The notes beneath the pieces were generated by a model. It was given only the letters and a program-made list of their open reading frames with translations, was not told where the DNA came from and searched no databases. Shown here one piece after another: positions 7,848 to 50,535 of a stretch of DNA of 60,059 nt (its first letter is position 1; each line of letters begins with the position of its first letter). The stretch is from a virus (Duplodnaviria > Caudoviricetes), in IMG/VR virus record IMGVR_UViG_3300042465_001922, positions 1 through 60,059 of that record. One strand, given 5' to 3'. The position numbers and the translations under genes are program-made.

Positions 7848-8537
7848 TCAAACCGTCTCGGGGGGGTGCGGGTGCGGTGGGGTCTCGGCCGGCGCGTTTT
7901 CAGTGGCCTCGGGGGCAGGAAGCGCGGACAGCTCAGCCAGCAGGGATTCGGCGTCTATCGTGTTCGCGTCCTGCGCGTCAGACTTGGCCACGGCCCGGAG
8001 CGATTCGAGTAGTCGCTCTTTGATATCCACAGAGGCGGAGAGCTTCAAGACCTCCCGCCGCTCAGTAAAGGCGGCCACCTCGGTCACCTTCCCCAATAGC
8101 TCCAGCGCTTTGATCTGCTGGGCGTCCTTAACGCTGGGGTCGGTTGCCTTCTTTGTCAGCTCGCTTATCACTAAGGCTCTTAGCTGGGCAGGGGTTCGTA
8201 ATCGCTCCAGCTCAAACGCCCGCTCGAAGGCTTCCTTCAGCGATATTATCGCGGCATCCTTAGCAAGGGCCTGCCCTCGGCGGCTTGCGGATTGGGGCTT
8301 GGCCTTCGTCTCCCTGCTCTTGCGGTATGCCCCAGCCTTACTCTCTCCGAGTGCTAGCTGGCGGGCGAATTCAATATCCTTGCGACTCAGCTTCTTTTCC
8401 TTCGTTGCTGTCGCGCCCACTAAAAGCACCTCTACGGGAACCTGATCCAGCCCTTCCCTGATCTGCTCTCTAGTCAATTTTCCCATGGGTACATTTTCGG
8501 AATCGGCTATCAATTGGGCGGAGTGTATAGCTTCCAC
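7848..8537 (-). CDS. Putative terminase small subunit
   Basis: HTH-like LSRKDIEFARQLALGESKAGAYRKS and IKALELLGK motif, upstream of terL; likely start 8486 (MGKLTREQ). Confidence 0.6.
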   Translation of the reverse strand: MEAIHSAQLIADSENVPMGKLTREQIREGLDQVPVEVLLVGATATKEKKLSRKDIEFARQLALGESKAGAYRKSRETKAKPQSASRRGQALAKDAAIISLKEAFERAFELERLRTPAQLRALVISELTKKATDPSVKDAQQIKALELLGKVTEVAAFTERREVLKLSASVDIKERLLESLRAVAKSDAQDANTIDAESLLAELSALPAPEATENAPAETPPHPHPPETV

Positions 8538-18527: not shown

Positions 18528-18770
18528 GGGCCTGTAAAGGGGTATTGTGAAGTAGCACTCAGACAGCCAGGAATCTTCCGGCTCAGTGAGGCTTAGCTTG
18601 ACCGGCTGCCCGGTGGTCCGATCCAAGATCATCCAGGCATCTGGGAACCGCTTAAAAAATAGCTGAGCTGCCCGGTTCTCCACCAGACAGGCGAAGTCCA
18701 GGAGTTCATCCTGGGACACCCCTTGTATCCCTACGGATACAGCCATATCTAGGACTTCGTCTTCGGTCAT
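18519..18770 (-). CDS. Hypothetical protein
   Basis: 83 aa, ATGA overlap, last gene of the leftward operon. Confidence 0.65.
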   Translation of the reverse strand: MTEDEVLDMAVSVGIQGVSQDELLDFACLVENRAAQLFFKRFPDAWMILDRTTGQPVKLSLTEPEDSWLSECYFTIPLYRPLT

Positions 18771-19405
18771 TCAGATCTTCCGTCGTAATCAAAGGTGCTT
18801 GTATCTCCCAGCCGCCACTTGGCAAACTGCTCAACCCGGTACTTTCTTTTGGCCACTATGAAATCTGGTTTCTTCATAACCTCTGGGTTAAAAGCAGGTT
18901 CAAAAAATCGGCAGCGGTTATTAGGCTGCAAGGCAAACTGGCCGTTGTCAAGCTTTAAAAGATTGTAGCTCTTATGCTCATCGACGGTCTCGGACAGGGT
19001 GAAGTCCGGGATCCTGGGGTCTGGGTTACAGGTGTCCAGGGTAAACATGTATTCCCCCGCATGAGCCTGGCGATCCTTGCCAAAGAACTCAGCCCGTAGT
19101 CCCTTGAGGAACGGTTTATCAACCACGGTTACGTAGTAGCTCAGCGCATCCCAGATCTCTAATACATCCAGCGGCAGCGGCTTATCGTAGACCGGCATCC
19201 AAGAAAAGGCATGGATCGGCAGCTTGTCATACAAAGCGCCGTACTCAGGAAGATAAGTCTCAAACCTGAACGCCTCGCCACGAATGGCTTTAACGCTGAC
19301 CCAGATCCCGGGGATCAGTGGCGTGTCAGCCGTGCAAGTAAAGTCGTACAAATACTCAGGCCGAACCCAGACTTTAACCGGGGGGAGTGGGCAGACAAAG
19401 TTCAA
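18767..19405 (-). CDS. Hypothetical phage protein
   Basis: LPPVKVWVRPEYLYD...GALYDKLPIHAF...DNGQFALQPNNR; start moved to TTG 19405 (GGAG RBS, overlaps the upstream stop). Confidence 0.75.
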   Translation of the reverse strand: MNFVCPLPPVKVWVRPEYLYDFTCTADTPLIPGIWVSVKAIRGEAFRFETYLPEYGALYDKLPIHAFSWMPVYDKPLPLDVLEIWDALSYYVTVVDKPFLKGLRAEFFGKDRQAHAGEYMFTLDTCNPDPRIPDFTLSETVDEHKSYNLLKLDNGQFALQPNNRCRFFEPAFNPEVMKKPDFIVAKRKYRVEQFAKWRLGDTSTFDYDGRSE

Positions 19406-19653
19406 CTGTTCTTCTCCTTTAGTTTGGCTTCGATGGCACGAAAATACTTGTAGGTATTTACCGTATTGCATGATTTCACAGCGACATCTATTTCCTCATC
19501 CGTCAGCCCAACCCATTCACGCTCAGGCTGCGCTAGTCGGTCACGCAGGGCAGTTTCTGCTTGTAGGTGTCGTTCCATCATTTTCATTGGGATAAATGAA
19601 TAAGCATTTTTAAGCGCTCTCAACGCCATTTGCATTAGTTCACGGTCTGTCAT
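19402..19653 (-). CDS. Hypothetical phage protein (REWVGLTDEEI type)
   Basis: 83 aa MTDRELMQMAL...REWVGLTDEEI...AIEAKLKEKN; GGAGG RBS. Confidence 0.75.
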   Translation of the reverse strand: MTDRELMQMALRALKNAYSFIPMKMMERHLQAETALRDRLAQPEREWVGLTDEEIDVAVKSCNTVNTYKYFRAIEAKLKEKNS

Positions 19654-21627: not shown

Positions 21628-22187
21628 CTTTTCCTCACAATGGTTTGCGCTCCCCAGCCGACTAGCTGGGCTTCCTCTGCGAAGATGTTGACAAAAGCAT
21701 CAATGGCCATCTTGGGGCGATGCAGGATATCTCGTGAGTCTCCCCACATATAGTCATCAAAGACCATCAGACCACCTTGACGCAGCAGCGGCCACGCCAT
21801 ACAAGCATCGGTCAGAACATCCTTCGCCACATGAGAGCCGTCGATGTAGATGAAATCCATCTCCGGAGCGCCTGTAATAATGGTGGCAAGCGCTCGGTAA
21901 GACTCATCTTTTAACTTGTAAATTTTTTGCTCACTACGCTTGGCCTTTTTTACGTTGGTTTCAAACCTAGTTTCAACCTGATCAAAGTCTATGCCTTGGT
22001 GATCTTCGCCGCCGGCCCAGGTATCCACGCAGTACAAGATTCCATCATCGGTCAGCATGTTCTCAATGATCCACACAGCTGACTGACCTTCATATGATCC
22101 AATCTCCAAGACCCTGCCAGCCCTAGGGAACTGGGACCAGCCGTGGGCGGTACGTTTGAACCAGTCGTTAGTGAACTCGTAGCTCAT
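21624..22187 (-). CDS. Class I SAM-dependent methyltransferase (Methyltransf_24-like)
   Basis: VLEIGSYEGQS, CVDTW, DFIYIDGSH, GGLMVFDDY. Confidence 0.85.
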   Translation of the reverse strand: MSYEFTNDWFKRTAHGWSQFPRAGRVLEIGSYEGQSAVWIIENMLTDDGILYCVDTWAGGEDHQGIDFDQVETRFETNVKKAKRSEQKIYKLKDESYRALATIITGAPEMDFIYIDGSHVAKDVLTDACMAWPLLRQGGLMVFDDYMWGDSRDILHRPKMAIDAFVNIFAEEAQLVGWGAQTIVRKR

Positions 22188-22525
22188 ACAGAGCCTCTGT
22201 TATTGTTGTTTCTGTTCGCGCATGGCCATACTGCCTGAAGCGATTCTCTGACCAACGTATATCCCTGCATGTGTCGCCTAGAAGGATTGGAATTTAGGTA
22301 CTGTTTAACTATGTCGTTAATCTGTCCAGCAGTAATCCCAGACTCTGTCTTTGGACAGAAAGCAACATGCACGTAAGCATCATAAATACCGATGACGTAT
22401 CCAAGACCGTACATTCTTTCCATAACATCCGTCGAGGTCAGTCTTTGATGCAAATCATTTCCTGACCAGAACTCCGCCCTAGCTAAAGCCGGAATCATTA
22501 GTAGTGCAATCAGTATCTTTCTCAT
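22184..22525 (-). CDS. Secreted Rap1a-like immunity protein
   Basis: Signal peptide ending ARA; SGNDL...GYVIGIYD...FCP...ITAGQINDIVKQYL..NP..RH...L...WPC pattern. Confidence 0.7.
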   Translation of the reverse strand: MRKILIALLMIPALARAEFWSGNDLHQRLTSTDVMERMYGLGYVIGIYDAYVHVAFCPKTESGITAGQINDIVKQYLNSNPSRRHMQGYTLVRESLQAVWPCANRNNNNRGSV

Positions 22526-22730: not shown

Positions 22731-23351
22731 TTAGTCCTGTGATAGTTCAAAGTTGTTAACAACGAATCTGCCATAGGTTGGACGAAAATCCCCAATCCCA
22801 ATCAGCCGACCGCTCGTGTCAATCACATCCCGCAGTAGCACCGGATCAATGTACTCGGGCAGCAGAACCTGGAGGCTAAAGTCAGCAGTCCACCCCTGCT
22901 TCATAGCCGGACGGGTGCGATTGATACCGGCCCGCTGAATAGTTACGCGACACGTATGTAGGTAGTCCCAGTTGTCAACGCCCAGTGTGGACAAGTTGGT
23001 CAGCGGTACGATGCCGGCTTTAAACAGATCCATAGCTGATTTGCGTGGGCTGCGCGGGTCTTGTTTAAACTTGGCCGCATGAATGATCGCCTGGCGTAGA
23101 TACTCACCAGGTACGCATAGCTCCCCGTCACTGTTACGCCAGACATAAGACTCAATGTCATCGGTCTTCTTGGCTGCGCTGTTCTTGGATGCCTTGGACT
23201 TAGCCTCAACCGCCTCGCAGTTCCAGCGATGAAACAACATGTCCGATGTTCCCTCAAGTCTTATGTGTACCGCATACGGAAGGCTTGCTTCAATTGCCTG
23301 CTTTGCACCGTTTGTCTTTTCCGACACTACCTTTAAAGCTGTCTTACCCAT
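22731..23351 (-). CDS. Stand-alone RAMP/Cas7-like protein (Vipr-like candidate)
   Basis: Beta-strand VHIRLEGTSDMLFH; LCVPGEYLRQAIIHAAK (cf. RAMP xxIPGSSLKGxxR); C-terminal Gly-rich loop GRLIGIGDFRPTYGRF; AAGGAG RBS. Confidence 0.75.
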   Translation of the reverse strand: MGKTALKVVSEKTNGAKQAIEASLPYAVHIRLEGTSDMLFHRWNCEAVEAKSKASKNSAAKKTDDIESYVWRNSDGELCVPGEYLRQAIIHAAKFKQDPRSPRKSAMDLFKAGIVPLTNLSTLGVDNWDYLHTCRVTIQRAGINRTRPAMKQGWTADFSLQVLLPEYIDPVLLRDVIDTSGRLIGIGDFRPTYGRFVVNNFELSQD

Positions 23352-23370
23352 TTTTAATTCTCCTTGTTAA

Positions 23371-23645
23371 GTAAAAAACCACACCACACACTTCCCTACC
23401 TGACCGCGACCAGCCTTACCTTAAAGTCTCATTGGAAAAACCAAACCTCACCCCACCTTGACCCACCTGGCCGGACCGGGCCTTACTTCGGCTCGCCGTG
23501 CCTCACCTTACTTAGTTTTTCCAATGAAACCTTGCCACACCAAACACGTGCCATGCCATTCCCAGCCCGACCGATCCAAACCAAACCGGGTAAAAAATCC
23601 ATGCCATGCCCCAGCTCACCATGTCCGACCGGACCATGCCGAGAC
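23371..23645 (-). ncRNA. Array of four GGY-NN pentamer tracts (candidate guide RNAs)
   Basis: 46 units in 5-nt phase, 32 exact GGY; tracts 23598-23645, 23529-23589, 23440-23514, 23378-23422; U-rich linkers; fills the whole intergenic gap. Confidence 0.8.
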
Positions 23646-23873
23646 TTAGTCTTGCGTTAACTCCTTTATTCTGTTTTGCAGATGGTTGATATGAGCGGAC
23701 TGCTGCTCAATCCTTTCTTGATATCTACGCATCTGCATTCCTACGTCCTCAATCAGATGACCCAGCTTTATTGCAAACTCTCGGAAGTCTGCTGCATTTG
23801 ATTCTGGATCTGCACTAGGGGTATGCCCCCGTGCATACATATCTTCTGCAAGCTGAATCATGTCTCGGATCAT
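23646..23873 (-). CDS. Hypothetical coiled-coil protein
   Basis: 75 aa, ATGA overlap; its stop abuts the GGY-NN array. Confidence 0.65.
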   Translation of the reverse strand: MIRDMIQLAEDMYARGHTPSADPESNAADFREFAIKLGHLIEDVGMQMRRYQERIEQQSAHINHLQNRIKELTQD

Positions 23874-24678: not shown

Positions 24679-24865
24679 GCCCAGCTAAAGATGTTCGGTT
24701 CCATGCCGATATGGACAGCTTGACTGGGTTCTCACCCTTGCCGATCTGATCCATCAGCAACTGCTTATCAACAACAATCTCTCCCCGCATATCGGGGTGA
24801 TTGTCTGAAGACTTCTTGTCGTTGTGCCACAACGATCCGGTGTTTGGCTTCGGTACAAAACTCAT
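24563..24865 (-). CDS. Single-stranded DNA-binding protein
   Basis: GSLWHN.K....HPDMRGEI...ISAW...YMSLSVSEP; acidic tail EDDSDVPF; next to ERF. Confidence 0.75.
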   Translation of the reverse strand: MSFVPKPNTGSLWHNDKKSSDNHPDMRGEIVVDKQLLMDQIGKGENPVKLSISAWNRTSLAGRDYMSLSVSEPFIPQPKADQQQKAAHDNSAEDDSDVPF

Positions 24866-25572
24866 GCTGCCTCCTTAAATTTGTTACGGGCTTGGGTAAA
24901 TTTGTCCATCAGGTCTTTAAAGAACGTAGCGTCTTGAGCTTTAACCTCCTCAAAGAGTTGCTTGTTCTTTTTGTAGATCGCCATCACATCATCCTCGCTG
25001 GTTGTAATGCTCAGCATTGAGGTGGCGGCGGTCTCAATAATCTCCATCCAGTCTGCTGATCCTGGGGTGCCAGACACAACCATCTGCCAATCACCAGGTT
25101 TACCTGCGATAGTTGTCTCAGTCTTGGGTGGCGGCGCGGGCGGAGCTGCAACAGGCTTTGGCACGGGCTTTGGCGCTACAGCCGGAGCAGAGTCCTTATC
25201 AGTCGTTGCATCTAATGCGTCATGCTCAACAATCTCCAGGGCATTCACATACAGATAGCGGCGCAGATAGGAGATCGACGCACCAAGGTTCTGGATAGGG
25301 TGACATCCCTTGAGTTCAGCCGCAGCCATCGGGGCCGTGAACAGCACGTACTCTTCCGGCTTGTCGGTGTTGTAGACCGTCAAAGTAGCGTCGCTAGAGC
25401 CAACCCTAAACACACCACAAAGGCCAGTATCACTAAAGATGGTTTGAACAGCTGGTAAAAAATCTTGAAGTTCGAAATATTCATAGCCTGCAAACTTGTT
25501 CTTGCCAGACTTATTGAGCTTCTTTTCCTGAAGCACTAGCCTAGCGGTTTGTAATTTCTGATATACGTTCAT
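24862..25572 (-). CDS. ERF-family single-strand annealing protein
   Basis: KSGKNKFAGYEYFELQD...IQNLGASISYLRRY...LEIVEHDALD. Confidence 0.85.
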   Translation of the reverse strand: MNVYQKLQTARLVLQEKKLNKSGKNKFAGYEYFELQDFLPAVQTIFSDTGLCGVFRVGSSDATLTVYNTDKPEEYVLFTAPMAAAELKGCHPIQNLGASISYLRRYLYVNALEIVEHDALDATTDKDSAPAVAPKPVPKPVAAPPAPPPKTETTIAGKPGDWQMVVSGTPGSADWMEIIETAATSMLSITTSEDDVMAIYKKNKQLFEEVKAQDATFFKDLMDKFTQARNKFKEAA

Positions 25573-25575
25573 TGT

Positions 25576-26460
25576 TTATGCCTCACTAGTTTTTTTCTCC
25601 TGATGGTTACGCCATTGCTGGCAGTAAACAGAAACTGGGCAGAAGTTTTCACATCGGGTGCGACTGCCCGGACGCACTTCGATCTCGTAAGCTTTTCCTA
25701 TCTTGGCAAGCACCTCCAAGGCTTCTTGCCGTGTGTCGTGAACCGACCTAGCCCGCGCACCGCCAATCTTTTTGACGGCATAGACCGTTGGTCTCTCCCA
25801 CATTTCCTCTGAGGTGCAGTCCGGCAGATCCCCATCGGTCTCTAACTCAAACTCGCAATTTGCATGTAAATGGATTCTTTCCTTGATAAATTCCTCGGCA
25901 TAGGATTTCTCCCAAATTGGGATACCAATCTCTTTGACCGGAGCCTGGGGGTAGTCAGGGTTCCTGCCCGCCTCCCTGCGATTCCAGTCCCGGATGATGG
26001 CTACTATGCCTAGGGAGCTGACCGGGGTTTTCTTGACCGTCTCTACAAGCCAGGCGTAGATGTTGAGCTGCTGCTCCCACTCGATCTTCTCGTTCATCAC
26101 TGACCAGGCCGATACGGTCTTGTAGTCTCGGACGGCGATACTATCGCCGCTCAATATCTGTAGATCTATGGCGCCGGAGATCTTCCAGCCATCGACCTCG
26201 GTATGCAGCCGCTCCTCAACAATGTGATTCTCATCCTGGCCATGCTCCAGAACCTTATGGACAGCCGAGCCAAAGATCGACCAGACCATGTCGGCCACAT
26301 CCTGTTCTAGCTCGTCTTCAAACTTCTTGGTCAGGGCTACGATCTTGGGGCTGTTGATCAGCTGGGTCACGGATAGGTTGGCCTTCCCCTTGCTGTAGGT
26401 GGGCCGGTCCAGCACGTTCACAAACGTCTGGGGGATGTTGTGCTTGTTGGTAAATTTCAT
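25576..26460 (-). CDS. PD-(D/E)XK exonuclease (RecB/Cas4-like)
   Basis: FGSAVHKVLE, ISGAIDL, VRDYKT, QLNIYAWL, C-terminal RCENFCPVSVYC. Confidence 0.85.
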   Translation of the reverse strand: MKFTNKHNIPQTFVNVLDRPTYSKGKANLSVTQLINSPKIVALTKKFEDELEQDVADMVWSIFGSAVHKVLEHGQDENHIVEERLHTEVDGWKISGAIDLQILSGDSIAVRDYKTVSAWSVMNEKIEWEQQLNIYAWLVETVKKTPVSSLGIVAIIRDWNRREAGRNPDYPQAPVKEIGIPIWEKSYAEEFIKERIHLHANCEFELETDGDLPDCTSEEMWERPTVYAVKKIGGARARSVHDTRQEALEVLAKIGKAYEIEVRPGSRTRCENFCPVSVYCQQWRNHQEKKTSEA

Positions 26461-26944: not shown

Positions 26945-26973
26945 AATTTAAACCAGCTTTTTCTGGATGTCAA
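26945..26973 (-). promoter_or_regulatory. Sigma-70-type promoter of the leftward operon
   Basis: TTGACA (26973-26968), 17 nt, TAAATT (26950-26945). Confidence 0.75.
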
Positions 26974-27004
26974 CACATGGTTCCCATATTCTTTCATGTG
27001 TTGA
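26970..27004. promoter_or_regulatory. Inverted repeat TCAACACATG-N15-CATGTGTTGA (copy 2)
   Basis: Overlaps the -35 box above; same arms and spacing as 15969-16003. Confidence 0.65.
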
Positions 27005-27012
27005 TAGAATTC

Positions 27013-27035
27013 ACACCTTAACAGTGTTAAGGTGT
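27013..27035. promoter_or_regulatory. Palindrome ACACCTTAACA-G-TGTTAAGGTGT (copy 2)
   Basis: Ends 6 nt before the rusA ATG; arms identical to 7756-7779. Confidence 0.6.
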
Positions 27036-27041
27036 AAACCC

Positions 27042-27389
27042 ATGATCCAGCTTGAGCTACCGTACCCGCCGACCATCAACCACTATTGGGGGCAGTACGG
27101 CAACCGCCGTTTCATAGGGAAGAAAGGCAAGCAGTTCAGGATAGATGTGGCAGAGGCATGCCTTGAGGCTGGAATACAGACCCTAGAAGGCCGTCTTTCG
27201 GTACACGTAGCCCTCTGGCCCCCGGATAGGCGGGCAAGGGACGTAGACAATGTTTTAAAGCCTTTGCTTGACGCTTGTGAGCATGCCGGCTGCTTTGTGA
27301 ACGACAGCCAGATCGACGAGCTTCACATCATTCGGCAGGAGGTCCGTAAGGGCGGGGCCTGCACGATAGTAATCCTACCTATTTCCTGA
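27042..27389 (+). CDS. rusA: RusA-like Holliday junction resolvase
   Basis: LPYPPTINHYW...PPDRRARDVDNVLKPLLDA...NDSQID; start moved to ATG 27042. Confidence 0.92.
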   Translation: MIQLELPYPPTINHYWGQYGNRRFIGKKGKQFRIDVAEACLEAGIQTLEGRLSVHVALWPPDRRARDVDNVLKPLLDACEHAGCFVNDSQIDELHIIRQEVRKGGACTIVILPIS

Positions 27390-30300
27390 TTCCTTGGCCT
27401 GACCAACCCGCTCATTGAACCGGGTCATGATGTCCGTGATCCGCTTATCAATGGCCTTGATGTCCTCTTTGGGGGCGTCCTTCTTGATCATCTCAGACTT
27501 CCGCCTGCGCAAAGCTTGAACCGTGCGCTCAACATTGTTGGCTGCGCCATACAGTCTGGCCTCGGGGTTTTCCCTAATATATTCATCCACGGGTTCCCGG
27601 TTCTTACGACGGCCCTTGATCTCGTTCTCATGCTCATTGATGAGTTTGATGTTGTCGTAGAACTTAGCGCTTTGAGCGGCCTGTCCTTTAGTCTCGCCAA
27701 CAAATCGGCCAACCAGAGGGATCTTATAGGTGGGCAGCTCTTCCCCTGTAACAGCAGCTGCTGCTGTTTGCTGGGCTTTTATAGCCTCCCGCCCAATACC
27801 ACCAAACGCTTGGCCGATTAGGTAATCAATCTGATCCGGAGTAGGACTGAACTTACCGGGCCGGAATTCGGTTCCACCGCTAGCATAGTTAAAGAATTCG
27901 GAAAGCTTCTTGCTAACCCAGCTTGCTGTGTCCTTAGCCCTGGTGTATCCAGGCGTTGGATCAAGACTGGAAATATCTTCCTTGGCGATTGTTTTCCCTG
28001 TCCAATCTTTGTTCTCAAGCAAAGCTACGGCTGGATCAAAAGGCGTTGGAGCAAAAGTTTGCCAAGACCAACCGGCGTTACCCAGCGGGTTAAACATCTC
28101 TAAAGCTGCACCGGTTATCTGAGCCACACGCTTTCCTGGATCTCTGAAATCATTCAATGCCCACTCGGTTCCAATCCTGGAAACAGTAGGAATGATGTTG
28201 AATCCAAGCGGCATGGGAATGGTGATGTATTTTCCATCTCCAATTGGGATAACAATGTTTCTATCCTTGATGAAATCGGGCGGCTCATCCTCATCAAACC
28301 CAGCAGCGGCCAGCAACATGGCTTGAGCTGATCCAAGAATCAAACCACCGTAGACAATCTTTTTACCAGCCGGACCACGAAGGGTCTGATACATCCTGGC
28401 CGTGCCTTGTACTGAAGCGTTAAAGAACGCATATAAAGCACCAACTTGCCGAGCTACCTGACCCTTGCGGTTAAAGTTAACCGTCAAGTTCTTTGCTACG
28501 GAAGCGGCCTGCTGCTTGCTTAATCCCTGATCCAGCGCTGCCTTGTAAGCGGCCAGGCGGACTGCATTCTCCATCGTCTCGTTGTAATCAGACAGCCAGT
28601 CAAAAATTGCCCGAGCAGACTTTTTGGCTTTACCCTCGGAAAGTTTTTTCAGCTCACTTGCCAGTGCATCACGACGCTCATCAGCTCGACTGAACTGATC
28701 ACGGAATCCCGTTTGGCCACCTTCTTTTTGGAACTCATCCCACAAGCTAGACCACTTCCCAGATGGAGGAGCTTTTCCGTCCCGTCGCGCCCGCAAATCA
28801 GCATAGATTCCGCGCAAGGCCGGCAACGTGTCAGCCATAACTTGCTTGGTTTTTCCTCTGATCGGAGTGTTTGTCAGATTAAGAGCTGCGCCTTGATAGT
28901 CACGTAAGAAGTTGATAGCACCAAAGATTGGGTTGTACTGCGTGTTAACCCTAGCAAAGTATCTGGTAACCACACCAAAAAACTCTAACGCTTTACTGAG
29001 CTGATCAGCATCCAGATTCTTAAGTGCAGTCGCCATGCGAATTGCACGGGGATCTTTTGTGTTAAAGAAAACAAACTTATCTTCGCCATTTACGCGAACG
29101 GATAAAACATTCTCTGCGCCACGTAATGTTGGATTGATTCCATGAATAACCGAATTGGTCGTTGGATCAACGTACGACCGAGTCGGCTCTTTCATAATGT
29201 TGGCCGCATCAGCCGGATTAATTCCCATCGACTGTAACTGTTGAACCGTCTTGAGAGGATCTTTGATGGCCTTGGGGTCTACCGCAAACCAGAAGTCAGT
29301 GTTTGGGTGTTGAACAGCTAAGCCATAAATTGCCTGAGATACACGGTTTTTTTCTGAACGGACAATTGCCCGCTCTCTTTGCATAGCGATATTGGCAAGG
29401 ATGTCTACTACCTGGCGACTAGAGCCAGCAGCCCTCTTGCTGGTAGGGCCACGGACACTGAAGCCCTGGCCAATACCGCGACCGATATTGCTAAGCTCGT
29501 AGTCCATCTCTTCTCGGGCAAGAGGTATGTAGTTCTTGTAAGAATTTTCCCAAGCCTGAATTGTTGCCGGATCTTCAATGCCGTTTTGAATCAATGTCTG
29601 CCGTGTCTTGGCTGTAATGGCGTCAACCTTTTTGGCTATTGACTCTAAGTCCTTGCGCTTTTGAGGAGACAAAGCATCTAAATATTTATTAGCATCGTCA
29701 GTAAAAATCCCTGACCCGCCGTCTGGCATAGCTGGATTTACTTTGGCGACTTGAATGTTCCGTTCTTTAGCATGACGGTTGTGCAGATACTCTTCGACAT
29801 CGGCAATTGTAAATTTTTTAGCATTAATTTCTTTAAGCAGCGGAGTAAGTTCTTTTTGTATAAAGTCATTTGTCTGCTTAGCTGTACGCCCGTGGTATAA
29901 CTCCTCTTGGAGATACGCATTCCAGCGATCCTGAAGCTTGCCTCTTGCCTCTTCAATATTAGCAATGACCCGCTTAGTATCAACCATCTTGTCTTGCAAC
30001 CGATAGATGACGTTATCGGTCTTGGTGTCATCTGGACGACCCCAAGTAGACTGTGATGCAGGTTGACCAAAAATATTTGTTCTAGCAAATAACGCTATCT
30101 GAGCTTCTTCATTGCTTGTTATTGGGGCGCCAGGAGAGGTTGCAACATTTTTAACCTCCATAATTGGCATGGTAAATAGCTCATTTGATAAGCCAAGAAC
30201 CTCTGAAAGGGTAGTTTCTTTAGATTTTGGAAGGCCAAGAAACTGTCTAATTGTTTCTACAAACTTGTCCCATACGCTTGTATTTTTGTATGGGATTGCT

Positions 30301-32864
30301 TCCATGTATTTTTGCATCTCTCGGCTGGTCATACTCCAGGCCAAGACTTCATCAGCATCATCTAAATAGTTTGCGCCTTTGTATATGCGAAGTTCAAAAT
30401 CATTCAGCTCGCCTTTGCCTTCTTTAAAAGCTTTTACCCGCGAGTTGTAGTGTTTGATAATTGTATTGCTTACGTCATTAAGACGTTTAGCAAGATCAGC
30501 AGCTTGAGTTCCAGCAAGTTGTTTTGTTCTTCCAAGAAAAAGCGATCCCTGAGTTACCGAATGAATTAACTCATGAAGTACTGTGTCGTATGTGGTTCCA
30601 ACTAATTTTGGGTCGCTATTGTCATTCAACCAAATTGTCAGGCTTTTTAAATTGCCAGTCTTGGTATCTACTCGTGACACTGAAATGCCATTAGAAGACA
30701 ACAAACGAACTGGTACTCGGTCACCAATTTTTGCAATCTTTAAATCAAAAGTAACACCAGAGTCCATCAATTTTTCCATGCGATCAACAACACGCTTGGC
30801 AATCATTTGATAGTCTTGGGTTGGAGCGTTAGATGCCATCCATTTGGCCGCCTCTAACGGAGTCTTTCCATCTAGCGCTTTTTGAATCTTCTCGGTTTCG
30901 TCTTTTAGGTCACCTTCAACCAATGGTTCTGCTCCAGCAGCAGATTTTTCAACGGTTTCTGTGTCGCTGTTAAAAAGTTTTAATTGATCGGCTCTTTCGG
31001 CCACGCTTGGAGTGCGCTTCGGAGTGATCTGGGATATGCCCTCGGCACCAAATAAATCTCCTGTAACAGCGGCTTCACGCTCAGGAACCTGTTGCTGTAG
31101 TTGAAAAAGATCGCGCTCTCGGTCAGCAATTGCCTTTTCTTCTGGAGAAGGTGCTGCCTGGCGAGTGATTATTTGCTCCGACGGCTCTCCCTCCGGAGTA
31201 ATACGTTCTGTAATACCTCCAGCTGTGACGATTTCGGGAGCTGTCTCAGCAACTCTAGGGCCTTCTTCTGCTGCGATTTCGGCTGCGATGGCATTGGCTT
31301 CTTGTCTGATTTGTTCATCCGTCATTTCCCTCGCAAGTAATTCTTCAATTTGCGCTAAATCCGTATTGAGTTTGCGCAGGCTTATATCGGTCTCAAATGT
31401 CAGATAGTTCTGATTCCGAATCTTGTCTTTGATGTACTCAACCGCTTCGGTTTCACGCCCAGGCGCCTTGAGTTCTGGATCAAGAAAGTCGTCTAGCTGG
31501 TTAGTGTTTGCTAACACATCAGCGATGTTCTCTCCCTCGCCACGCTTAGGCGACATACGGAAGACCCTGGCAACGCCCGGCTCCGGGGAGATGTCAAATA
31601 CTTCTGACTCACTAAGCCTGTTGCGCAACACGGTGGCCAGGCTTGGGCCTTTATCCCGCATGGCACGGCTAATATCTTTTTCTGCTGCCGCCTTCTCAGC
31701 TTTAAGTCCAGCAATTTCTTCCGGCTCTGGGGGCAGCTCTTCAGAAATGTATGGCCGAGTCTCGGTGGGAATTTCTGGTGCGGCTTCAAGTTCGGCTGAG
31801 GCTTCTGCCATCCGGCGTTGAGCTTCAGGCAAGCCTGGTACAGCCTCTGCTGCCGTGGGTTCTGGCATCAAGCCTAGCGCTTTGAGAGCCTCTTCTTCTG
31901 GGGCCATGCCCGGCTCAGTCGCCTCAATAGCCTGCTCTCTAGCAAGACGCTCCGGTGCAGACTCCGCAGCCTGTTGCTTGAGATCTTCTTCTTTCTCTGG
32001 GGACGGAGTTTCTTTACGGCCGCTTAGAACCTCTCTAGTAGCCTGAACGCCACCACCTAATCCGCCACCAACGATGGCGCCTTCCAGCATCCGTTCACCA
32101 AGTTCTTTTGGATCAACTCCTTTGATCGTGCCAGCTGTCTCACCCAGGTATGCGGCACCTTCTTCAACGGCCTCAGTTCCTCCCTGAACGCCTGTTTCTT
32201 TCGCCAACCTGCCGGTGCGGGTTTGTGATTCAGCGCCTTTACCAAAGCGTTTTGTAGCAAATCTTTCTAATGTTGCCTCTGTTATGGCCGCACCAGCTGC
32301 CGCTGTTACATCACCAACAGTAGCGTCATTTAGTGTCTTGTTGTCATTCTTAACCCGTTCATCCAGGATTTCTTTAGTCCTTGCACCTATGTACGGGGCA
32401 AACGCATACACCGCTGCTGCCATGTCTGGGGTGGATGTAATAACACGCTCAGCAATAAACGGTACTGCATTTAATGGATTGTCAGCTAAATCGCTTAGCT
32501 TGGTGCTGGGGCTGTAACCAATATTCTTTTCAACATCCCGCAACGACCCAGCCAGGTTAAACAGGGGTTGAAGCTGTTTTTCGCTTTTAATCTGTTCGGG
32601 TGGAATGTTACTTAAAGGAATCTTAGATTCCATAAAGTCACCAGCCCGTTCGGCCACTTCAGCAACCGCCTCTACACCCGATGCAGCAAGACCAGCTGCC
32701 CTTCCCAATGCTCCCATTAAGGGATTTTTTGTCCCGCCTGGTGGGGCGCCTAGCCCAGGCATTTGTTGTATGACCGCCTGGTAAGCCTGAGTGTCATCTA
32801 ACTCTACTGGAGACTCAACGCGAAAGGTCCCCTGTCCTGGGATGTCAATCCGGTAAACCGGCAT
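27375..32864 (-). CDS. Large internal virion/ejection polyvalent protein (zincin-like HExxH, LPD38-like C-terminus)
   Basis: 1829 aa; VLHELIHSVT; C-terminal AKNLTVNFNRKG...YAFFNASVQG...ITIPMPLG...NKDWTGKTI. Confidence 0.7.
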   Translation of the reverse strand: MPVYRIDIPGQGTFRVESPVELDDTQAYQAVIQQMPGLGAPPGGTKNPLMGALGRAAGLAASGVEAVAEVAERAGDFMESKIPLSNIPPEQIKSEKQLQPLFNLAGSLRDVEKNIGYSPSTKLSDLADNPLNAVPFIAERVITSTPDMAAAVYAFAPYIGARTKEILDERVKNDNKTLNDATVGDVTAAAGAAITEATLERFATKRFGKGAESQTRTGRLAKETGVQGGTEAVEEGAAYLGETAGTIKGVDPKELGERMLEGAIVGGGLGGGVQATREVLSGRKETPSPEKEEDLKQQAAESAPERLAREQAIEATEPGMAPEEEALKALGLMPEPTAAEAVPGLPEAQRRMAEASAELEAAPEIPTETRPYISEELPPEPEEIAGLKAEKAAAEKDISRAMRDKGPSLATVLRNRLSESEVFDISPEPGVARVFRMSPKRGEGENIADVLANTNQLDDFLDPELKAPGRETEAVEYIKDKIRNQNYLTFETDISLRKLNTDLAQIEELLAREMTDEQIRQEANAIAAEIAAEEGPRVAETAPEIVTAGGITERITPEGEPSEQIITRQAAPSPEEKAIADRERDLFQLQQQVPEREAAVTGDLFGAEGISQITPKRTPSVAERADQLKLFNSDTETVEKSAAGAEPLVEGDLKDETEKIQKALDGKTPLEAAKWMASNAPTQDYQMIAKRVVDRMEKLMDSGVTFDLKIAKIGDRVPVRLLSSNGISVSRVDTKTGNLKSLTIWLNDNSDPKLVGTTYDTVLHELIHSVTQGSLFLGRTKQLAGTQAADLAKRLNDVSNTIIKHYNSRVKAFKEGKGELNDFELRIYKGANYLDDADEVLAWSMTSREMQKYMEAIPYKNTSVWDKFVETIRQFLGLPKSKETTLSEVLGLSNELFTMPIMEVKNVATSPGAPITSNEEAQIALFARTNIFGQPASQSTWGRPDDTKTDNVIYRLQDKMVDTKRVIANIEEARGKLQDRWNAYLQEELYHGRTAKQTNDFIQKELTPLLKEINAKKFTIADVEEYLHNRHAKERNIQVAKVNPAMPDGGSGIFTDDANKYLDALSPQKRKDLESIAKKVDAITAKTRQTLIQNGIEDPATIQAWENSYKNYIPLAREEMDYELSNIGRGIGQGFSVRGPTSKRAAGSSRQVVDILANIAMQRERAIVRSEKNRVSQAIYGLAVQHPNTDFWFAVDPKAIKDPLKTVQQLQSMGINPADAANIMKEPTRSYVDPTTNSVIHGINPTLRGAENVLSVRVNGEDKFVFFNTKDPRAIRMATALKNLDADQLSKALEFFGVVTRYFARVNTQYNPIFGAINFLRDYQGAALNLTNTPIRGKTKQVMADTLPALRGIYADLRARRDGKAPPSGKWSSLWDEFQKEGGQTGFRDQFSRADERRDALASELKKLSEGKAKKSARAIFDWLSDYNETMENAVRLAAYKAALDQGLSKQQAASVAKNLTVNFNRKGQVARQVGALYAFFNASVQGTARMYQTLRGPAGKKIVYGGLILGSAQAMLLAAAGFDEDEPPDFIKDRNIVIPIGDGKYITIPMPLGFNIIPTVSRIGTEWALNDFRDPGKRVAQITGAALEMFNPLGNAGWSWQTFAPTPFDPAVALLENKDWTGKTIAKEDISSLDPTPGYTRAKDTASWVSKKLSEFFNYASGGTEFRPGKFSPTPDQIDYLIGQAFGGIGREAIKAQQTAAAAVTGEELPTYKIPLVGRFVGETKGQAAQSAKFYDNIKLINEHENEIKGRRKNREPVDEYIRENPEARLYGAANNVERTVQALRRRKSEMIKKDAPKEDIKAIDKRITDIMTRFNERVGQAKESGNR

Positions 32865-48129: not shown

Positions 48130-48732
48130 TTACCTCCTACTTTTAAGCCCCAAGCTTGGGCGCTTATCAAATTTATGGTCGGCGTTGGGGCCGTCCTGTT
48201 TAACGTAATGCAACATAAACTGCACATTTACTTCTGTTTCTGTAGCCGGTGTACGCCAGTGTTTAATTTGGCACCCATGATAAATACAAGCATCGCCAGG
48301 TTCAAGAACATGTTCCGATGGCTCTGACCCAGGAGCTTGCATCCAAATAGGCCAAGGCTTTCCAACAGTTGCTATATGACAAGTTACTGAAATTTCACAT
48401 GCCGGTCGGTCAGTATGCGGTTTAAGCTCGTCACCTTTGGTGTAGACCCTGGTAAATGAATATGACGGGAATAGCTTATACCCAGTAATTTCTTCCATCT
48501 CAGAAAGAGAGTTAACCAAAACCGTTTCAATTAGCGGATCTGCGTACCACGAAATCTTGCTGCTATCACCATCTCGACCACCTTGATTGTTTTCAGGATA
48601 ACGCTTTAATGAGTTTTCAAGATACCGGGAAATAGTTGATACCGATTGTGGATCAATAAACCCACGGACAATTGTGTAACCTTTGTTTTGAAACTCTTCA
48701 GTTCTAGTCATAATAAAACCATCCTGTAACAA
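48130..48732 (-). CDS. 2OG-Fe(II) oxygenase
   Basis: LKPHTDRPACEISVT...IKHWR (HxD...H). Confidence 0.8.
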   Translation of the reverse strand: MLQDGFIMTRTEEFQNKGYTIVRGFIDPQSVSTISRYLENSLKRYPENNQGGRDGDSSKISWYADPLIETVLVNSLSEMEEITGYKLFPSYSFTRVYTKGDELKPHTDRPACEISVTCHIATVGKPWPIWMQAPGSEPSEHVLEPGDACIYHGCQIKHWRTPATETEVNVQFMLHYVKQDGPNADHKFDKRPSLGLKSRR

Positions 48733-49345
48733 TGTATTTGTATTTATCTGTTAACACAGGGTTTCCGCGATGCGCATGTGTATATGAAGCAGGCCACAAC
48801 AACATCAAGTTCTCTTCTGGTTTAACTCTGGTTCTTTGATACAAAAATTCAGTTTCCCCACCGTCATTATCTTCAAATGAGTTTAAATACACCATATAAA
48901 CCAAAACTCGATTAGCTTGTGTACCCGGACCTTGTTCTCCGTGCCAAACATGATAACCACCTCCGGGGCTGGTACGTTGCATCTTCATAACTGAAGCACG
49001 AATTTTTCCGTTATCCCGAAGTATTGAATATTTAGCTGTGTAATTGTCGTAGCAAGCTTGCAAACCATCAAAAAATAAATCACACGAATCTTTTTGAAAA
49101 TCTTTGGTTAACCCGTTCTCATCAACTTCATTCCATTTAAATGGTTGAAGATTGTGATTACGCAGCTCTATTCCTATTTGATAATCATCTTTAATGTGCT
49201 TATTTGCATTCTCTGATTTCTGACGATTGGCGCCAACACCACCTTCTTCAAGGCGATTGAATTCAGCAATCAAATGCTCACAGTATCCAGATGGATACAG
49301 GTTTCGGTAATAACCAATAAAGTCTTTGTGTTCTACGTCGTTCAT
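48704..49345 (-). CDS. 2OG-Fe(II) oxygenase (prolyl-4-hydroxylase-like)
   Basis: GYHVWHGE...YLN...GGETEF...THAHRG...KYIVTGW. Confidence 0.85.
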   Translation of the reverse strand: MNDVEHKDFIGYYRNLYPSGYCEHLIAEFNRLEEGGVGANRQKSENANKHIKDDYQIGIELRNHNLQPFKWNEVDENGLTKDFQKDSCDLFFDGLQACYDNYTAKYSILRDNGKIRASVMKMQRTSPGGGYHVWHGEQGPGTQANRVLVYMVYLNSFEDNDGGETEFLYQRTRVKPEENLMLLWPASYTHAHRGNPVLTDKYKYIVTGWFYYD

Positions 49346-49935
49346 TTAAATGGTGGCCCCGATATCCATGCGACTAACGATTGACGACTTCCTTGCGTTA
49401 CAGGAGTTACTTGATGCAAGGTCCAAGATGGAAAAGCAACAATAAGACCGCGTTGCTTTCTCATTTTTAATACGTCCTTTCCATGAGTTTGAAGCTCTAA
49501 TACGCCACCCTCGTATTCAACAGGATCGGACAATTGCATTACCAAAGACAATTTTCTGCATGGAGCATTCGTATGCGGACCCATATCCACATGCCATCCA
49601 TACATTCCATTTTCAGATTCGTCATAATGAGTCAATTGAATTTGCTCACCAAACCCCGTTAAGTTAAATCTAAAAAATTGCGAGTTTAAATTTGAAACAA
49701 CGTGTGCCAATGTTTCAAATACCCAAACTGTTTCAGGAGTATTAGATAACCAGTGCAAACCCGATCTACGCACATTTTCATTAACCGAACCATTCCCACC
49801 GCCGCCAACCTCTGCTTTTACTTGAACATTACGAGCTTGTTGTTGCAACCAGTTCAATTGCTGGTCATTAAAAGCACCTTCCCACCAAGCATACGGTTCT
49901 TGCGCTTGATTATATGGGGTTAACAAATATTGCAT
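49342..49935 (-). CDS. 2OG-Fe(II) oxygenase (PKHD-type-like)
   Basis: YGWHVD...RKLSLVMQLSDPVEYEGGVL...FPSWTLHQVTPVTQGSRQSLVAW. Confidence 0.9.
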   Translation of the reverse strand: MQYLLTPYNQAQEPYAWWEGAFNDQQLNWLQQQARNVQVKAEVGGGGNGSVNENVRRSGLHWLSNTPETVWVFETLAHVVSNLNSQFFRFNLTGFGEQIQLTHYDESENGMYGWHVDMGPHTNAPCRKLSLVMQLSDPVEYEGGVLELQTHGKDVLKMRKQRGLIVAFPSWTLHQVTPVTQGSRQSLVAWISGPPFK

Positions 49936-50535
49936 TTAATTTTGTCTTTCTTTGCAACTTAATGTGAAATGAATAAATTTTGTTGATTCGGGAACTTGAT
50001 TAAAAGCAAACTGATGAGGAAGCCAGGCATTAAAAAACATAAATGTGCCTGGCGCCATGTTATTAAAATAAATCTTTGGGGTTCCAACTCTTAATTCATT
50101 ATCAGCCATCATAAAATCAGTCATGGCTTTGCTAGTTCTTGGATCTGAAAATATTGGAAACGATCCGCCTTCTGGAGCTTCTAAAAAAAACAAGCCACAC
50201 ATTTGCGTATTAGCATGAACGTGCGGCTCGTGCATTCCTCCCTGCCCTATTTCCTGCCCCCACATACCAGATGTGTAAAACTCAAATGGGTCGATAAAAT
50301 AACCCTGTTGCTTTAAAAGATCAGTAGCAGTCTTCGCAAAATAGTCAGATAAGAAAAATAATTCTGGATCATTGCCCATGTGACCAGTCTGTGTCACCGG
50401 CCAAGTCATGTTTCTTTCTTGGTCTATTTTCTTTTGCTCTGCGTAATACCTTTCTGAGTTTTTTAAAACATGATCGACCCACTCGGGCTTTTCTTCCCGA
50501 TACACGGCAGAAGGAAAATAGTGAAACTCATTCAC
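49936..50535 (-). CDS. Putative 2OG-Fe(II) oxygenase (HxH...H type)
   Basis: HEPHVHANTQMCGLFFL...FSDPR...FFNAWLPH. Confidence 0.8.
   Translation of the reverse strand: MNEFHYFPSAVYREEKPEWVDHVLKNSERYYAEQKKIDQERNMTWPVTQTGHMGNDPELFFLSDYFAKTATDLLKQQGYFIDPFEFYTSGMWGQEIGQGGMHEPHVHANTQMCGLFFLEAPEGGSFPIFSDPRTSKAMTDFMMADNELRVGTPKIYFNNMAPGTFMFFNAWLPHQFAFNQVPESTKFIHFTLSCKERQN

Follow-up and report, generated by a model that had tools for sequence, protein, structure and literature searches.

The systems called VIPR (Viral Interference Programmable Repeat) were introduced in preprints from April 2026 (10.64898/2026.04.26.720920, 10.64898/2026.04.26.720927). In the accessible text of the first of these, VIPR guides comprise 9-16 units, the natural targets are rival elements, and six vap genes are named for seven VIPR types (10.64898/2026.04.26.720920); another preprint, in its accessible part, counts 99 clusters of VIPR-like period-5 arrays (10.64898/2026.10.21.760802). 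The reference for the comparisons made here is Escherichia phage SUSP1 (vipr, YP_009199429.1; vap1, YP_009199428.1; PDB 36pp; see also the accessible text of 10.64898/2026.10.15.759431). In the cryo-EM preprint, as far as its accessible text goes, the repeat bases G1, G2 and Y3 are held by the SUSP1 residues H17, D177, W178, R138, E71, M72 and R179, and the pyrimidine pocket of the solved Vipr-RNA complex excludes purines; its methods describe the P. fulva complexes as devoid of a fiducial such as the 3' pseudoknot of SUSP1 (10.64898/2026.04.26.720927). The 60,059-bp record IMGVR_UViG_3300042465_001922 (hereafter the window, analysed at its full length) is a whole IMG/VR virus genome with a completeness rating of 96%, and contains, on its minus strand, a gene for a Cas7-like RAMP protein (22731..23351) preceded by an array of pentameric units (23352..23645). 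Judging from sequence comparison, this locus is very probably the VIPR system of a ~60-kb lake-water phage. VIPR itself having already been published, the locus adds another member with a vap-less, promoter-less and tightly packed array.

The 206-aa product of the gene, hereafter vipr, is, by sequence profile and predicted structure, a homologue of SUSP1 Vipr with a Cas7/Csm3-type RAMP fold. In a sequence search of the PDB with phmmer, the SUSP1 Vipr chain 36pp_D was the only significant match (E = 3.5e-6); the same chain was matched at E = 3e-8 by a 22-sequence profile of close homologues and at E = 4e-18 by a 71-sequence profile of diverse homologues, which aligned residues 33-206 against 5-189, and BLASTP against YP_009199429.1 gave 35% identity over 72 aa of the C-terminal part. 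Neither Pfam nor PADLOC returned a match for the protein, and PHROGs gave only phrog_4652, a family of unknown function. A first AlphaFold model, built from the 22 close homologues, was set aside (pLDDT 57.9), and an AlphaFold2 model from the 71-sequence alignment reached a pLDDT of 93.3 and a pTM of 0.85. This model comprises a strand (26-34), a helix (82-95), a hairpin (130-150) and a loop (185-195), the glycine-rich loop being placed between helix 170-184 and strand 196-204. All 36 matches listed by Foldseek are class 1 CRISPR effector chains (type VII, Csm, Cmr, Cas7-11), with a best E of 1.1e-6, and a structural search independent of Foldseek placed CRISPR RAMPs in each of its top 29 rows (Z of at least 7.3); the best matches are the Csm3 chains 9g9a_D (Z 11.7, root-mean-square deviation 3.9, 154 residues aligned) and 6ae2_B (Z 11.7, root-mean-square deviation 3.0, 149 residues aligned). 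An earlier note, written from the DNA letters with no database search, had proposed a RAMP protein from three motifs (a first strand, a helix start and a C-terminal glycine-rich loop), had suggested AlphaFold plus Foldseek as a check and had suggested a VIPR-like system; the three motifs sit in the model as it claimed, the check returned the Cas7/Csm3-type fold, and the suggested identity is supported by the match to SUSP1 Vipr, both by the sequence alone and as the 71-sequence profile.

The residues that contact the GGY triplet (Y, pyrimidine) in SUSP1 have counterparts in the window protein. Specifically, direct pairwise alignment pairs R138, D177, W178 and R179 of SUSP1 with R147, D188, F189 and R190, and profile alignment pairs H17, E71 and M72 with H41, E83 and Y84; the two residues that differ (W to F, M to Y) are conservatively replaced. 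Moreover, among the 71 diverse homologues, G34, P148, W154 and G194 are invariant, and R147, D188 and R190 are conserved in at least 90%.

On the minus strand, a gene for a 75-aa coiled-coil protein (23646..23873) is followed by 294 non-coding nt and then by vipr, and the interval in between, from 23352 to 23645, holds 46 units of GGY followed by a dinucleotide (NN), arranged in four tracts of 10, 12 (9+3), 15 and 9 units. Tract 1 (23596..23645; 10 units, 6 GGY and 1 GGA) begins one base past the upstream stop codon and is separated from tract 2 by linker 1 (23588..23597), which carries the U-run TTTTTTACCC and has no stable fold of its own. Tract 2 (23527..23587; 12 units, 9 GGY and 2 GGA) contains the only break of phase, one extra base at 23542, and tract 3 (23438..23512; 15 units, 11 GGY) lies in the loop of a predicted helix. 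Tract 4 (23376..23420; 9 units, 6 GGY and 1 GGA) is followed by the U-run TTTTTTAC and by the vipr ribosome-binding site, AAGGAG, within 23352..23375, a segment with no hairpin terminator; the array ends ~20 nt before AAGGAG, and neighbouring tracts are 10-19 nt apart. Overall, the triplet is exactly GGY in 32 of the 46 units and GGA in 4. The earlier note had given the same unit, tract, GGY and GGA counts, which were reproduced exactly, and a single 1-nt slip, which it had placed near 23547. It had also stated that cas1, cas2, cas5, cas6 and a repeat-spacer array are absent, in agreement with the scans of the window: Tandem Repeats Finder gave only three short repeats and hence no CRISPR array, and PHROGs and PADLOC revealed no Cas protein except a Cas4-like recombination exonuclease (25576..26460).

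The periodicity of the array is far beyond what its composition would give. The distances between GG dinucleotides peak at 5, 10, 15, 20, 25 and 30 nt (26, 22, 19, 17, 16 and 14 pairs, respectively), with 2-9 pairs at each of the remaining distances from 2 to 29 nt. Period-5 GG chains contain 35 GG, whereas 2000 shuffles gave 0.7 on average and 21 at most, and GGY falls on one fixed 5-nt grid 17 times (mean 6.0 and maximum 12 in 5000 shuffles). Conversely, the NN positions hold 14 different dinucleotides among the 46 units. Elsewhere in the 60-kb window, the one period-5 chain is a weak plus-strand G-run (7861-7892; 5 of 7 units). Two open reading frames that run through the array, of 98 aa (23364..23660, plus strand) and 41 aa (23512..23637, minus strand), were rejected as genes because the repeat has a period of 5 and not of 3; they are composition artefacts that gene callers could miscall.

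The family behind this protein is very large: among 6,639 candidates that share words with it, 6,484 proteins match at E <= 0.001, and 1,926 clusters at 50% identity match at this threshold. Thirty-seven related loci (L001-L037), namely 36 from IMG/VR and that of the named phage DSL-LC04, were examined for arrays. Period-5 GG chains on the strand of the gene, at most 1.2 kb upstream or 1.5 kb downstream of it, are present in 36 of the 37, the exception being L016, whose record begins at the gene and has no upstream DNA; the arrays are weak in L021 and L031. In the arrays of these 36 relatives and of the window, with units written as YNNGG, 91% of units have C or T at the first position, and the information content of the N positions is 0.04 and 0.02 bits, figures in which overlapping chains are counted more than once and in which the GG columns are circular, GG being the rule by which units were detected. 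With this reserve on GG, two expectations of the earlier note were confirmed, namely that homologues have pentamer arrays beside them and that GGY is constant where NN varies. The NN of the arrays cannot be aligned with those of relatives at or below 75% protein identity.

The closest named relative is DSL-LC04 (L001; OR003939.1, from Dishui Lake), whose protein WJZ48083.1 (4001..4618) is 71% identical to that of the window. In GenBank this protein is labelled 'helix-turn-helix transcriptional regulator', a label that looks wrong and may spread to relatives. In a sister clade of 10 loci (70-76% identity), vipr is overlapped for 4 nt by the next gene downstream, which is conserved and codes for a protein of 114-147 aa with a lysine-rich N-terminal part of the KKPAKKA type and a helical C-terminal part (among them L005, L001, L003, L007-L010, L016, L035). 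Pfam returned nothing for this gene, it does not resemble SUSP1 vap1, and the window lacks it; from its sequence, its product could be a DNA-binding accessory protein of a vap-like kind that has yet to be described. In several relatives, including DSL-LC04, a GC hairpin with a U-run lies between the array and vipr, whereas the window has no hairpin there. In the distant relative L028 (58% identity), each tract is followed by a local hairpin tail of ~55 nt (z-scores -4.2 and -4.9).

The comparison of near-identical strains gives a concrete case of guide turnover. Strain L002 codes for a Vipr identical to that of the window, and its flanking genes are 94-100% identical, yet it carries six tracts versus four. 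The difference is a single block of 140 nt that contains two guides with their tails and is bounded by the same tail sequence. Within the shared units, eight substitutions separate the two strains, five on the pyrimidine, two on N and one on G; of the five pyrimidine-position changes, three are C-to-T and keep the pyrimidine, one, A-to-T, restores it, and one is C-to-A. Small as these numbers are, the pattern fits a free choice of C or T together with conserved guides. The DNA contigs of four sequencing runs hold no array variant, and the 12 differences counted over 1601 nt of one strain contig all lie outside the array, which is not significant.

In the minimum-energy fold, linkers 2 and 3 are complementary and form a 23-pair helix around tract 3, with a 5' arm at 23511..23533 (the end of tract 2 and linker 2) and a 3' arm at 23423..23445 (linker 3). 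The same arrangement occurs twice in L002 and also in L001, L008, L009 and L035; in L005-L007, the loop measures only 14 nt, whereas five further loci have 5 to 10 pentamers in it. A consensus of 18 pairs was drawn from eight examples in seven loci, in which 139 of 139 cells are paired, a figure that is inflated, as the eight were chosen by eye for complementary arms; two of these examples are almost duplicates. Both sides are changed in 12 pairs of the consensus, its covariation score was matched by 0 of 500 shuffles, and controls with a slid register pair just 37-64% of cells. Between the window and L002, the helix has one fully compensated pair difference, C-G to U-A. The enclosed guide is almost alike in three phages (L001, 3812..3892; L008, 1658..1734; L009, 2600..2674), whose other guides differ; it may be aimed at a widespread rival or have a structural role.

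The enclosing helix could be where a double-strand RNase cuts, or it could cap the filament, and if it is a processing or capping signal, it would represent another way of making VIPR guides. A more elaborate proposal, which we put forward tentatively and hold to be somewhat doubtful, is that in this clade of lake phages the structured tail of a guide became a long helix with a whole nested guide in its loop; the helix would then be a signal for a host double-strand RNase that cuts a promoter-less precursor, and maybe a birthplace of guides by pentamer expansion, and the repeated tails would allow gain and loss of guides by recombination. If true, the nested guide would be a new array architecture and the first hint of how VIPR arrays are renewed without Cas1 and Cas2. 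In the main text of neither the discovery preprint nor the one on satellite competition was an enclosing or inter-guide helix found; the one hairpin discussed there is that of the SUSP1 tail, and nothing relevant on RNase came up. The accessible text of the cryo-EM preprint makes no mention of RNase, hairpin or nested guides, and no paper in the library searched joins vrRNA with RNase III.

From the homology to SUSP1, Vipr protomers would probably line up along each of the four guides (vrRNAs), one per pentamer, with H41, D188, F189 and R147 holding the two guanines and E83, Y84 and R190 of the next protomer holding the pyrimidine. The NN pairs left exposed would then read double-stranded DNA, passing over one base from each pair to the next (NNx NNx ...), and the bound filament would block transcription of a competing phage, satellite or prophage. 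The guides probably derive from one precursor that runs on from the upstream RHH/coiled-coil genes and is then cut, a single precursor being the simplest reading since the tracts are 10-19 nt apart and no promoter or terminator was found. Transcription and processing, the assembly of a ribonucleoprotein (RNP), the skip rule, the silencing and the type of target are inferred.

For the target search, each GGY was converted to one wildcard and the NN were joined, in keeping with the 1-nt skip rule given in the available Methods of the preprint (10.64898/2026.04.26.720920). Within the window and 37 partial loci, no site reaches an NN match of at least 80%, the best being 14 of 18. This absence of a self-target in the phage agrees with the absence of self-targets published in the accessible text of the same preprint (10.64898/2026.04.26.720920). 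In the whole records of five relatives, no site reached 80% and 0 matches were found with up to 3 mismatches, the best scores equalling those of shuffled guides, and 81 guides of relatives, compared with the window and the five records, also stayed at the shuffled level and gave nothing above 0.83, with the top scores coming from the shortest guides.

Exact patterns were sought in three public collections. In viral_contigs, guide 3 (28 bases), guide 2 (18 bases) and guide 4 (18 bases) gave 0 matches. The 3' half of guide 3 (18 bases) gave one match there, in L039, which was taken as chance, as only 3 of 12 further guide bases agree. Guide 1 (18 bases) gave one exact NNx match (L040, 1501..1526), within what resembles a tape-measure gene, on a phage contig of GC-rich appearance, each skipped base being at codon position 3; the base make-up of L040, in the stretch seen, looks unlike that of this phage. 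By estimate, not by computation, a lone 18-base match in so large a collection is compatible with chance, and the site was not accepted as a target. Patterns of 22 and 24 bases gave 0 matches each in metagenome_contigs, as did the 22-base pattern in genome_contigs. A 16-base pattern was too loose to be useful, with more than 120 matches in genome_contigs from unrelated phyla; in the 120 matches listed, the 8 further bases agree at chance level (mode 2).

Several results weigh against the VIPR reading of this locus. A natural target turned up neither in the phage itself nor among five relatives, complete or partial, nor in the three public collections, and none of the 20 runs that contain the locus is an RNA run. 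Between 22400 and 24400, the minus strand showed neither a sigma-70-like promoter nor a hairpin terminator. Ten of the 46 units depart from both GGY and GGA (e.g., GAC, GCU, GCC, AGU, GUC, UGU), and the phase slips once; some guides may be decaying. On the protein side, SUSP1 K33, which contacts the target backbone, aligns with A54, with K51, K53 and K56 close by. The choice of the helix examples by eye and the two near-copies among them belong to the same side of the balance. Confidence in the VIPR reading comes from homology.

Part of this evidence bears on a second explanation, namely that the VIPR system serves gene regulation of the phage itself or of its host, or that the guides are decaying leftovers, rather than an anti-rival weapon. 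The degenerate units and the phase slip speak for it, as do the exact NNx patterns, which gave no rival target in the viral, metagenome and genome collections, and the equally empty mismatch-tolerant scans of five related phage genomes. It is nonetheless improbable: neither a self site at 80% NN match nor a score above those of shuffled guides was seen; the protein is kept in ~6,500 relatives with the array beside its gene in nearly every locus examined; close strains keep NN while the pyrimidine drifts, which points to guides under selection; and the natural targets published so far, in the accessible text of the preprint, are rival elements (10.64898/2026.04.26.720920).

Much less survives of the explanation that the array acts as DNA, as origin iterons, a protein-binding repeat or G-quadruplex-prone DNA that lies beside a RAMP gene by chance. 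The G-rich strand does carry GG every 5 nt, a spacing that could form two-tetrad quadruplexes, and the transcript of the array is only predicted. Chance adjacency is hard to reconcile with arrays that lie beside the gene and on its strand in 36 of 37 relatives, and the pyrimidine that follows GG in 91% of units matches the purine-excluding pocket of Vipr; moreover, the linker helix covaries through G-U pairs, which count in RNA and not in duplex DNA. The explanation was rejected as extremely improbable. Equally remote, and likewise rejected, is the idea that the array makes an RNA that soaks up a host RNA-binding protein such as CsrA/RsmA or TRAP, proteins that also recognise short, closely spaced triplets: TRAP reads GAG/UAG triplets spaced ~5 nt and CsrA reads GGA, which occurs in 4 units, but GGY outnumbers GGA by 32 to 4, neither a hammerhead nor any other Rfam family was found at the locus (one weak sX9 match, E = 0.51, falls outside the array) or in 20 related loci, and the array always accompanies a Vipr gene.

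The VIPR locus is set in a phage genome whose genes include a terminase, a portal, a primase, a helicase, an Erf/exonuclease/RusA recombination set and an endolysin, and the 20 runs that contain the locus are all DNA from lake or fresh water. Upstream of the array, the minus-strand genes are of the RHH/coiled-coil kind; directly downstream of vipr lies a gene for a 68-aa membrane-like protein that matched no family. The second gene downstream of vipr, Rap1a/Tai4-like (22184..22525, minus strand; Pfam PF18602, E = 8e-15), belongs to a family of immunity proteins against type VI secretion amidases, an odd cargo for a phage; its homologues are present in 5 related loci, and the DSL-LC04 copy is annotated 'Tai4 (type VI amidase)'.

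The Cas4-like PD-(D/E)XK exonuclease (25576..26460, minus strand; PADLOC Cas4, E = 7e-7; phrog_2139 exonuclease) adjoins the genes for an Erf annealing protein and a RusA resolvase (24862..25572, minus strand; 26967..27389, plus strand) and most likely belongs to the recombination module of the phage and not to the VIPR locus. A 1,829-aa protein (27375..32864, minus strand) matches giant phage proteins whose function is not known (phrog_14770, E = 1e-205), with a weak DarB-like antirestriction match, and is probably an injected virion protein. Lastly, a row of auxiliary genes (48130..50535, minus strand) comprises one ferrochelatase-like and three 2OG-Fe(II) oxygenase-like genes, and a ferredoxin-like gene lies at 18767..19471.

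Taken together, the locus is a well-documented VIPR case from an uncultured freshwater phage, with a very large protein family behind it. Its value lies in annotation and in array biology, and what VIPR is stays unchanged.

Compared to the backbone subunits of the Cas7 family (Csm3, Cmr4, type VII Cas7, Cas7-11), the Vipr of the window shares the RRM core, the loop rich in glycine and the thumb hairpin, although its sequence identity to class 1 Cas7 proteins is just 8-15%, and the window, unlike class 1 CRISPR loci, contains no other cas genes and no repeat-spacer array. The reading of the guide differs as well: in the accessible text of the preprint, reading of a VIPR guide advances by 5 nt at a time, of which three are held and two left exposed, whereas in class 1 systems every sixth crRNA base is flipped from the crRNA-target duplex (10.64898/2026.04.26.720920). 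With DSL-LC04, the window shares an upstream pentamer array on the same strand, a helix around one guide and a genome from lake water (~61 kb in DSL-LC04), and differs from it in having no lysine-rich downstream gene that overlaps vipr by 4 nt.

The likeness to SUSP1, a type II system, extends from the homologous Vipr (profile E = 4e-18) with its retained GGY-contact residues to guides of 9-15 YNNGG units on the strand of the gene, and both systems are phage-encoded and stand apart from cas genes and CRISPR arrays. Unlike SUSP1, the window has no vap1 (tblastn, six-frame, best E = 1.3). As six vap genes are named for seven types in the accessible text of the preprint (10.64898/2026.04.26.720920), a VIPR type with no vap would be implied, and the window locus would fit it. 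The arrays differ in architecture, too. In SUSP1, each guide comes with a leader and with a ~40-60-nt tail that contains a pseudoknot, guides are found to either side of vipr-vap1, and the first guide, at least, has a promoter-like site of its own. In the window, the tracts have no structured 3' tail each, being separated by linkers of 10-19 nt, of which linker 1 is unfolded and linkers 2 and 3 pair with each other; its four guides are instead packed into one upstream array, with U-run linkers and a helix around guide 3.

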